From a virus (taxonomy: Duplodnaviria; Heunggongvirae; Uroviricota; Caudoviricetes): a DNA stretch of 4,845 nucleotides. Where the stretch lies: the IMG/VR virus record IMGVR_UViG_2529292833_000009; one strand, written 5' to 3'. The notes below the pieces were generated by a model that was not told the origin of the DNA, searched no databases, and saw nothing but the letters and a program-made list of their open reading frames with translations. Positions 2,380-4,035 of this stretch are shown piece after piece. The translations under genes and the position numbers were made by a program. Positions within the stretch are counted from its first letter, which is position 1. Each line of letters starts with the position of its first letter.

Positions 2380-4035
2380 GGCACGTATGCCATCACCGCC
2401 GTGCAGCATGTGCCGGAGAAAGAGGCCATCGTGGATAACGGGGCGCACTTTGACGGCGACCAGAGCGGCACGGTGAATGGTGTCACGCCGCCCGCGGTGC
2501 AGCACCTGACTGCCGAAGTCACCGCAGACAGCGGGGAGTATCAGGTACTGGCCCGCTGGGACACGCCGAAGGTGGTGAAGGGCGTGAGCTTTATGCTTCG
2601 CCTGACCGTGGCCGCGGATGAAGGCATTGAGCGGCTGGTCAGCACGGCCCGGACGGCGGAAACCACATACCGCTTCACGCAACTGGCGCTGGGGAACTAC
2701 AGGCTGACAGTCCGGGCAGTAAATGCCCGGGGACAGCAGGGAGACCCGGCGTCGGTATCGTTCCGGATTGCCGCCCCGGCAGCGCCGTCGCGGATTGAGC
2801 TGACACCGGGCTATTTTCAGATAACCGCCACGCCGCATCTTGCGGTTTATGATCCGACGGTACAGTTTGAGTTCTGGTTCTCGGAAAAGCGGATTGCGGA
2901 TATCAGGCAGGTTGAAACCACAGCCCGCTATCTTGGTACGGCGCTGTACTGGATAGCCGCCAGTATCAATATCAAACCGGGCCATGATTATTACTTTTAT
3001 ATCCGCAGTGTGAACACCGTTGGCAAATCGGCATTCGTGGAGGCCGTCGGTCGGGCGAGCGATGATGCGGAAGGTTACCTGGATTTTTTCAAAGGCAAGA
3101 TAACCGAATCCCATCTCGGTAAAGAGCTGCTGGAAAAAGTCGAGCTGACGGAGGATAACGCCAGCAGACTGGAGGAGTTTTCGAAAGAGTGGAAGGATGC
3201 CAACGATAAATGGAATGCCATGTGGGCTGTCAAAATTGAGCAGACCAAAGACGGCAAACATTATGTCGCGGGTATTGGCCTCAGTATGGAGGACACGGAG
3301 GAAGGCAAACTGAGCCAGTTTCTGGTTGCCGCTAACCGTATCGCGTTTATTGACCCGGCAAACGGGAATGAAACGCCGATGTTTGTGGCGCAGGGCAACC
3401 AGATATTCATGAACGACGTGTTCCTGAAACGCCTGACGGCACCCACCATTACCAGCGGTGGCAGTCCTCCGGTATTTTCCCTGACATCAGACGGAAAGCT
3501 GACCGCTAAAAATGCGGATATCAGTGGCAGTGTGAATGCGAACTCAGGGACGCTCAACAATGTCACGATTAATGAGAACTGTCAGATTAAGGGGAAACTG
3601 TCAGCCAACCAGATTGAAGGTGATATTGTCAAAACGGTCAGCAAGTCTTTCCCCCGCACGAACAGTTATGCCAGTGGCACCATCACGGTAAGAATCAGTG
3701 ATGATCAGAAATTTGACCGGCAGGTCATGATACCGCCAGTGTTATTCCGCGGTGGTAAGCATGAGAATTTCAACAGTAATAACCAACAGTCATACTGGTA
3801 TTCAACCTGCCGGTTAAGAGTGACCCGCAATGGTCAGGAGATTTTTAATCAGTCCACGACGGATGCTCAGGGCGTATTTTCCTCCGTTATAGATATGCCT
3901 GCCGGACAGGGGACGCTGACACTGACATTCACCGTATCTTCATCAGGAGCGAATAACTGGACACCAACAACCAGTATCAGCGATCTGCTGGTTGTGGTGA
4001 TGAAAAAATCCACAGCAGGTATCAGTATCAGCTGA
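2380..4035 (+). CDS. J: J C-terminal fragment (frame 1), including FN3-like repeats and a divergent C-terminal receptor-binding region; lacks an authentic start
   Basis: Frame 1 is open after the TGA at 2368..2370. Codons from 2380 read [26 protein letters not shown], matching recalled lambda gpJ. The ORF-track start at 2401 (GTG) is an internal Val codon. The frame ends at TGA 4033..4035. Confidence 0.8.

Follow-up and report, generated by a model that had tools for sequence, protein, structure and literature searches.

Which receptor is used by a lambdoid phage whose tail tip protein J closely follows that of phage lambda for most of its length and then departs from it at the C-terminus, and how was this C-terminus acquired? 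The questions are raised by a stretch of 4,845 bp (hereafter "the window"), which is the complete contig AQDY01000070.1 of the draft assembly GCA_000355395.2. The window encodes the tail-tip block of a lambdoid prophage, with the genes in the order K-I-J-lom-stf, as in annotated relatives (Table 1). We find that positions 3557-4035 are very likely the C-terminal receptor-binding module of a lambdoid J, of an allele shared with A8 gpJ and phage phi330, which recognizes OmpC and not LamB and which has moved as a cassette of about 480 bp.

Table 1. Features of the window (position 1 is the first base of the contig).
Feature	Position	Strand	Basis
Gene K (C40 family peptidase), last 13 nt of the 3' end	1..13	+	Cut by contig start; in the collinear TW10828 prophage annotation the peptidase ends at locus 3013 = window 13
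Gene I (tail assembly protein, 190 aa)	10..582	+	ORF list; TW10828 and O114:H49 annotation; 100% identical to O114:H49 90-9280
IS66-family right-end remnant (583-622, 40 nt) and 8-bp target-site copy GTTTATGG (623-630)	583..630	+	Comparison by eye with O114:H49 90-9280
Gene J (tail tip / central tail fibre)	642..4035	+	96.0% nt identity to lambda J up to 3556; Pfam domains
Zone of five single-base deletions in J	2245..2376	+	Alignments to lambda, TW10828 and O114
Conserved 5' flank of the cassette	3500..3556	+	Seven-phage alignment; differing J lineages converge here
Divergent receptor-binding cassette, A8/phi330 (OmpC) type: about 27 residues of distal fibre and the Ig-like receptor-binding domain	3557..4035	+	Identity to lambda, PDB 9wca_J and phi330
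Pfam PF12421 Ig_GpJ_C match	3658..4032	+	128.3 bits against a cut-off of 26.2; residues 67-191 of translated 3460-4032
Terminator-like hairpin and T-run in the J-lom spacer	4053..4078	+	Hairpin scan; within the conserved 3' flank of the cassette, kept in phi330, 1717, WGPS2 and 434
lom (Ail/Lom outer-membrane beta-barrel protein, 199 aa), the common allele and not that of lambda	4102..4701	+	Pfam Ail_Lom, 394.6 bits
Terminator-like hairpin and T-run 3' of lom	4728..4755	+	Hairpin scan
stf (side tail fibre), first 80 nt; contig stops here	4766..4845	+	Sequence; collinear prophage annotation

Among 5,426 complete E. coli genomes, the closest relatives of the window are prophages of ETEC-type strains: O114:H49 90-9280, ETEC-2264 and LR882978 (99.2% identity) and TW10828 (98.5%). 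All 33 substitutions that separate the window from the O114:H49 prophage are confined to two patches within J, at 805-1178 and 1961-2135; the contig is otherwise identical to it. This distribution suggests either small recombination patches or several prophage copies collapsed into the draft consensus. A hairpin scan of the window retrieved two terminator-like hairpins with T-runs, at 4053-4072 and 4728-4749, compared to 0.7 expected in shuffled sequences.

The J comparisons used phage lambda (NC_001416) as the reference, with protein identity taken after repair of the frameshifts described below. Over positions 642-3556 the DNA agrees with lambda at 2799 of 2915 positions, and 22 of the first 973 residues of the protein differ (97.7% identity), in agreement with the original prediction that J follows lambda gpJ for roughly its first 980 residues. 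Upstream of its C-terminal domain J carries the Pfam domains FNIII-A_GpJ, Phage-tail_3, Ig_J, Ig_J_second and Phage_Tail_Tip. Past this point the DNA identity is 54.5% (253/464, with 30 gap columns, at 3557-4035) and the protein identity over lambda J residues 974-1132 is 43.3%, too low for the LamB-binding allele of lambda; high C-terminal identity to lambda gpJ, the outcome that would have contradicted the prediction, was therefore not what we found. The divergence had been placed at 3580; it is real but sets in about 25 nt earlier, with a first cluster of mismatches at 3546-3557 (S974N). The accompanying statement that the tail no longer resembles the lambda C-terminus is correct as to the drop in identity but overstated, because the last 191 aa of J still align over their full length to lambda J (BLASTP E = 1e-64) and pass the Ig_GpJ_C profile, on which lambda's own domain scores 251.3 bits. 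Divergence from lambda does not end with J, and continues through lom to about position 4590.

To examine how the divergent segment is distributed among related phages, we compared identity profiles over the region in a seven-phage alignment (the window with phi330, 434, WGPS2, 1717, 4A7 and lambda). Phage phi330 (vB_EcoS_phi330, PV189401), a siphophage of the Pankowvirus group, is 95-100% identical to the window at the nucleotide level over 3530-4040 and carries the same lom allele (83-100%), whereas its J body is mostly at 40-75%. The exception in that body is a stretch of 97% identity at 2594-2713, in the fibronectin-like region of J, with flanks at 53-85%; it represents a further small mosaic patch in the gene. 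Phage 434 presents the reverse arrangement: it shares with the window the J body (87-100%, up to about 3589) and lom (88-100%), and differs in the cassette (33-70% of nucleotides). WGPS2 and 1717 rejoin the window in the 3983-4040 bin, at 100% and 93% identity, respectively, which places the rejoining in the final 50 nt or so of J. The alignment thus directly shows an exchanged unit of about 480 bp, with one cassette recurring on J bodies that differ and one J body bearing cassettes that differ, and the recombinational swap of the receptor-binding domain that had been proposed is borne out by phi330 and 434. We set the bounds of the cassette at the conserved stretch 3500-3556 and at the end of J with its terminator. 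Movement of the cassette between lambdoid prophages would take place by homologous recombination, with 3500-3556 serving as the 5' flank and the 3' flank made up of lom, the terminator that precedes it and the final ~50 nt of J.

Could the tail instead have arisen without recombination, through point mutations accumulating in place under diversifying selection? Selection for host range is known to act on receptor-binding domains, and the tail of J is still homologous to that of lambda. However, identity to lambda falls abruptly, from 98% at 3494-3553 to 63% at 3554-3613 and to about 50% beyond, and gradual change in one lineage accounts poorly for a cassette that is nearly unchanged on the otherwise dissimilar J body of phi330, or for a phage such as 434 that has the J body and lom in common with the window but not the cassette. 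We therefore consider divergence in place very improbable, and retain exchange of the cassette as the explanation for its presence here.

The lom gene downstream of the cassette is 83-100% identical (per 60-nt window) to those of phi330, 1717, WGPS2 and 434, while the lom of lambda is at about 27-65% over most of the gene, until about 4590. The block that diverges from lambda is long, then, because the lom of lambda is itself the outlier. We also considered that the J cassette and lom might form one co-inherited block, and rejected this since the same lom accompanies four cassette types (those of A8/phi330, 1717, WGPS2 and 434). Phage 4A7 has a related J cassette and no lom at all.

Base composition had been put forward as a further sign of the swap, the tail being described as more AT-rich than the rest of J. 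This is true as a description: GC content is 0.474 at 3580-4035 as compared to 0.580 at 642-3579, GC at third codon positions (GC3) is 0.54 as compared to 0.61-0.77 upstream, and, when all 456-nt windows of the contig are ranked by GC, the segment is in the bottom 4%. The additional drop that is specific to the cassette is only modest, though, with a GC content of 0.512 already reached at 2832-3579. The main GC step within J lies at about 2830 and is common to lambda, and the cassette alleles themselves range between 0.46 and 0.55 (0.470 here, 0.546 in lambda and 0.476 in phage 434). For these two reasons we regard low GC as weak evidence of a foreign origin.

A search of solved structures provided the identity of the tail. 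The whole divergent part is 100% identical at the amino acid level to the PDB chains 9wca_J/9wcb, "A8 gpJ 713", and the identity runs from the graft point of A8, lambda residue 964, to the end of J. A8 is one of two natural E. coli gpJ C-termini that were grafted onto lambda J at this residue, replacing the use of LamB by that of OmpC (Brodel et al., Nature 2024, PMC11338833). At the DNA level the two are also nearly identical: the A8 sequence in the supplement of Brodel et al., a machine-read text with dropouts, matches window positions 3499-4035 at 518 of 538 columns, and 11 of the other 20 are gaps that we attribute to the machine reading. The two differ in their setting, A8 having been grafted onto lambda J, whereas the module in the window sits on a natural J whose frame is broken in the contig.

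Published experiments on A8 and on phi330 allow the receptor to be named. A8 chimeras delivered DNA into MG1655 delta-lamB delta-ompC cells only when ompC was supplied on a plasmid, and delivery reached about 90% of cells both with the OmpC of MG1655 and with that of EDL933 (PMC11338833). OmpC variants differ between strains, and 2 of the 23 variants tested were used by neither A8 nor 1A2 (PMC11338833). The module in the window is also 98.7% identical in amino acids to that of phi330, an Stx2a phage for which the dependence on OmpC is genetic: it gave no plaques on the Keio delta-ompC strain, plaques were restored by an inserted Plac-ompC, and it lysed all 54 outer-membrane-protein knockouts tested except delta-ompC (PMC12502783). 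In addition, two PDB entries cover the A8 gpJ 713 central tail fiber: 9WCA, described as a closed state, and 9WCB, described as an open state with the E. coli EDL933 OmpC G17; the latter entry includes three OmpC chains. The prediction of a receptor other than LamB is thus supported by experiments on an identical domain and on a nearly identical one, as well as by a structure. The further statement that the receptor cannot be inferred from sequence is out of date: published tests and structures of identical and near-identical domains now allow OmpC to be assigned to this allele.

Structure prediction, which had been suggested as a check, added nothing independent. An AlphaFold2 model of the last 191 aa, made without an alignment, was poor (pLDDT 53.6, pTM 0.44), and although Foldseek matched it to 9WCA, 9WCB, 8XCK and 8XCJ, these matches are largely sequence-driven.

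That the domain nonetheless binds LamB, or a third receptor, would find some footing in the fold family, which is the same as that of the LamB-binding domain of lambda, and in LamB and OmpC both being trimeric porins. Against this stand the function of A8 in cells that lack lamB, with ompC as the plasmid-borne gene in the doubly deleted recipient, the failure of phi330 on delta-ompC alone among the knockouts tested, and the solved complex with OmpC. We judge such a receptor assignment extremely improbable, and OmpC is taken as the receptor in what follows.

Two further phages help to place this allele. The gpJ of lambda (PDB 8XCJ and 8XCK; PMC11101478) has the same PF12421 domain at the same position and of the same length, on a J body that is nearly the same, and presumably the same trigger mechanism, but its receptor is LamB. 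Phage 434, which resembles the window in its J body and lom, has also been reported to use OmpC (PMC12502783, PMC11101478). Its cassette is only 46.1% identical in amino acids to the one described here, which therefore does not belong to the 434-type allele, and 434 represents a separate OmpC-binding lineage. The loop predicted to mediate binding in 434 is much shorter in phi330 and makes no contact there (PMC12502783).

The lambda J protein has an Ig-like domain with loops L1-L4 and adopts open and closed states (PMC11101478). Judging from the A8 and lambda J structures, the Ig-like domains of the module in the window would trimerise where the central tail fibre ends. By analogy with the lambda-LamB structure, the loops at this tip probably enter trimeric OmpC through its extracellular mouth. 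As in lambda, binding would spread the three tips apart, and the movement may then be relayed up the beta-prism and the helical shaft, so that the tail tip opens for DNA ejection (PMC11101478). [quoted passage not shown]

The J gene of the window is not one continuous frame as the sequence stands. Compared with lambda, TW10828 and O114:H49, it lacks single nucleotides after positions 2245, 2301, 2312, 2333 and 2376, and is split into the ORFs 642-2267, 2264-2476 and 2401-4035. The gene measures 3394 nt here and 3399 nt in intact relatives, a difference for which the five deletions account exactly. We searched for these deletions in 5,426 complete E. coli genomes and found them in none of 7,854 matching places, the best identity being 97.8% (221/226); a 221-nt segment across the deletions matches many genomes at exactly this value, with five gaps and no substitutions. 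A search of GTDB species representatives with the sequence of the first deletion also gave no exact-pattern match, a result of low power since each species is represented by one genome.

A second irregularity is found between I and J. In place of the native spacer, gene I is followed by 40 nt that are identical, by eye, to the final 40 nt of the IS66-family element inserted at the I-J boundary of O114:H49 90-9280, and the 8-bp target duplication of that genome (GTTTATGG) comes next here as well. The full IS66 element occupies this exact site in O114:H49 90-9280, ETEC-2264 and LR882978, while lambda and TW10828 have a different I-J spacer, with a hairpin. In the contig, the rest of the element and the native left-hand spacer are absent, and CTGA is all that is shared where the remnant joins the end of I. 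The remnant may be either a deletion scar or a mis-join.

We interpret the five deletions as probable errors of sequencing or draft assembly, in a J gene that is natively intact, because positions 2136-4845 are otherwise identical to the O114:H49 prophage, because no complete genome shares the deletions, and because the contig is a short orphan in a draft assembly and derives from a prophage region that is repeated. It is also conceivable that J has truly been inactivated, with both the deletions and the IS66 remnant being real, the prophage defective and the module no more than a silent reservoir for recombination. The frame is, after all, split into three ORFs, the IS66 end between I and J marks a lineage hit by an insertion sequence, and the closest complete genomes carry the full element at the same site. 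Yet five deletions within 135 nt, set in 2.7 kb without a single substitution relative to O114:H49, are hard to reconcile with genuine decay, and J is intact in the IS66-bearing relatives themselves; together with the absence of the deletions from complete genomes and the orphan status of the contig, this makes true inactivation unlikely, if not negligibly so. Were the deletions real, J would be a pseudogene and the module would not be displayed on the virion. The J of an ETEC-type prophage would then have been inactivated very recently, with flanks still 100% identical to an intact relative and the cassette left only as a recombination donor for incoming lambdoid phages, a scenario that we likewise hold to be improbable. 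On our preferred interpretation, errors in the draft sequence, the native J would be whole.

The cassette is widespread. Of 5,426 complete E. coli genomes, 2,412 contain its DNA at a coverage of at least 80%, with 925 records at 99% identity or above, and among the matches listed at least 12 complete E. coli genomes carry it with 100% nucleotide identity. The cassette of lambda, in comparison, is found in 98 of the 5,426, in all of them at 99% identity or above, and the carriers among the matches listed (8 records) are all laboratory derivatives of K-12 or B, including DE3 lysogens. The A8/phi330 allele is thus the usual one in complete E. coli genomes, and that of lambda is the exception.

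Among phage records, amino acid identity to the module falls into discrete classes: 98-100% (44 records), about 82% (4A7, mEp460 and ev017), about 78% (1717), about 61% (WGPS2), about 46% (434) and about 44% (lambda). One record, MW057783.1 (Campylobacter phage CJLB-4), gave at 18347-18817 a tblastn result that is the same as that of lambda (43.8%, with equal E-value and score); with a lambda-like genome length of 48,361 bp, it looks like lambda DNA under the name of a Campylobacter phage.

The elements of this picture are already known: publications cover the allele, its OmpC receptor and its structure, as well as engineered lambda particles that make use of it, and the window carries a common and well-characterised host-range cassette. 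What follows from its identification is practical, in that J genes with this C-terminal sequence can be annotated as OmpC-type. The rarity of the lambda allele, in turn, matters wherever lambda serves as the reference for wild lambdoid prophages.
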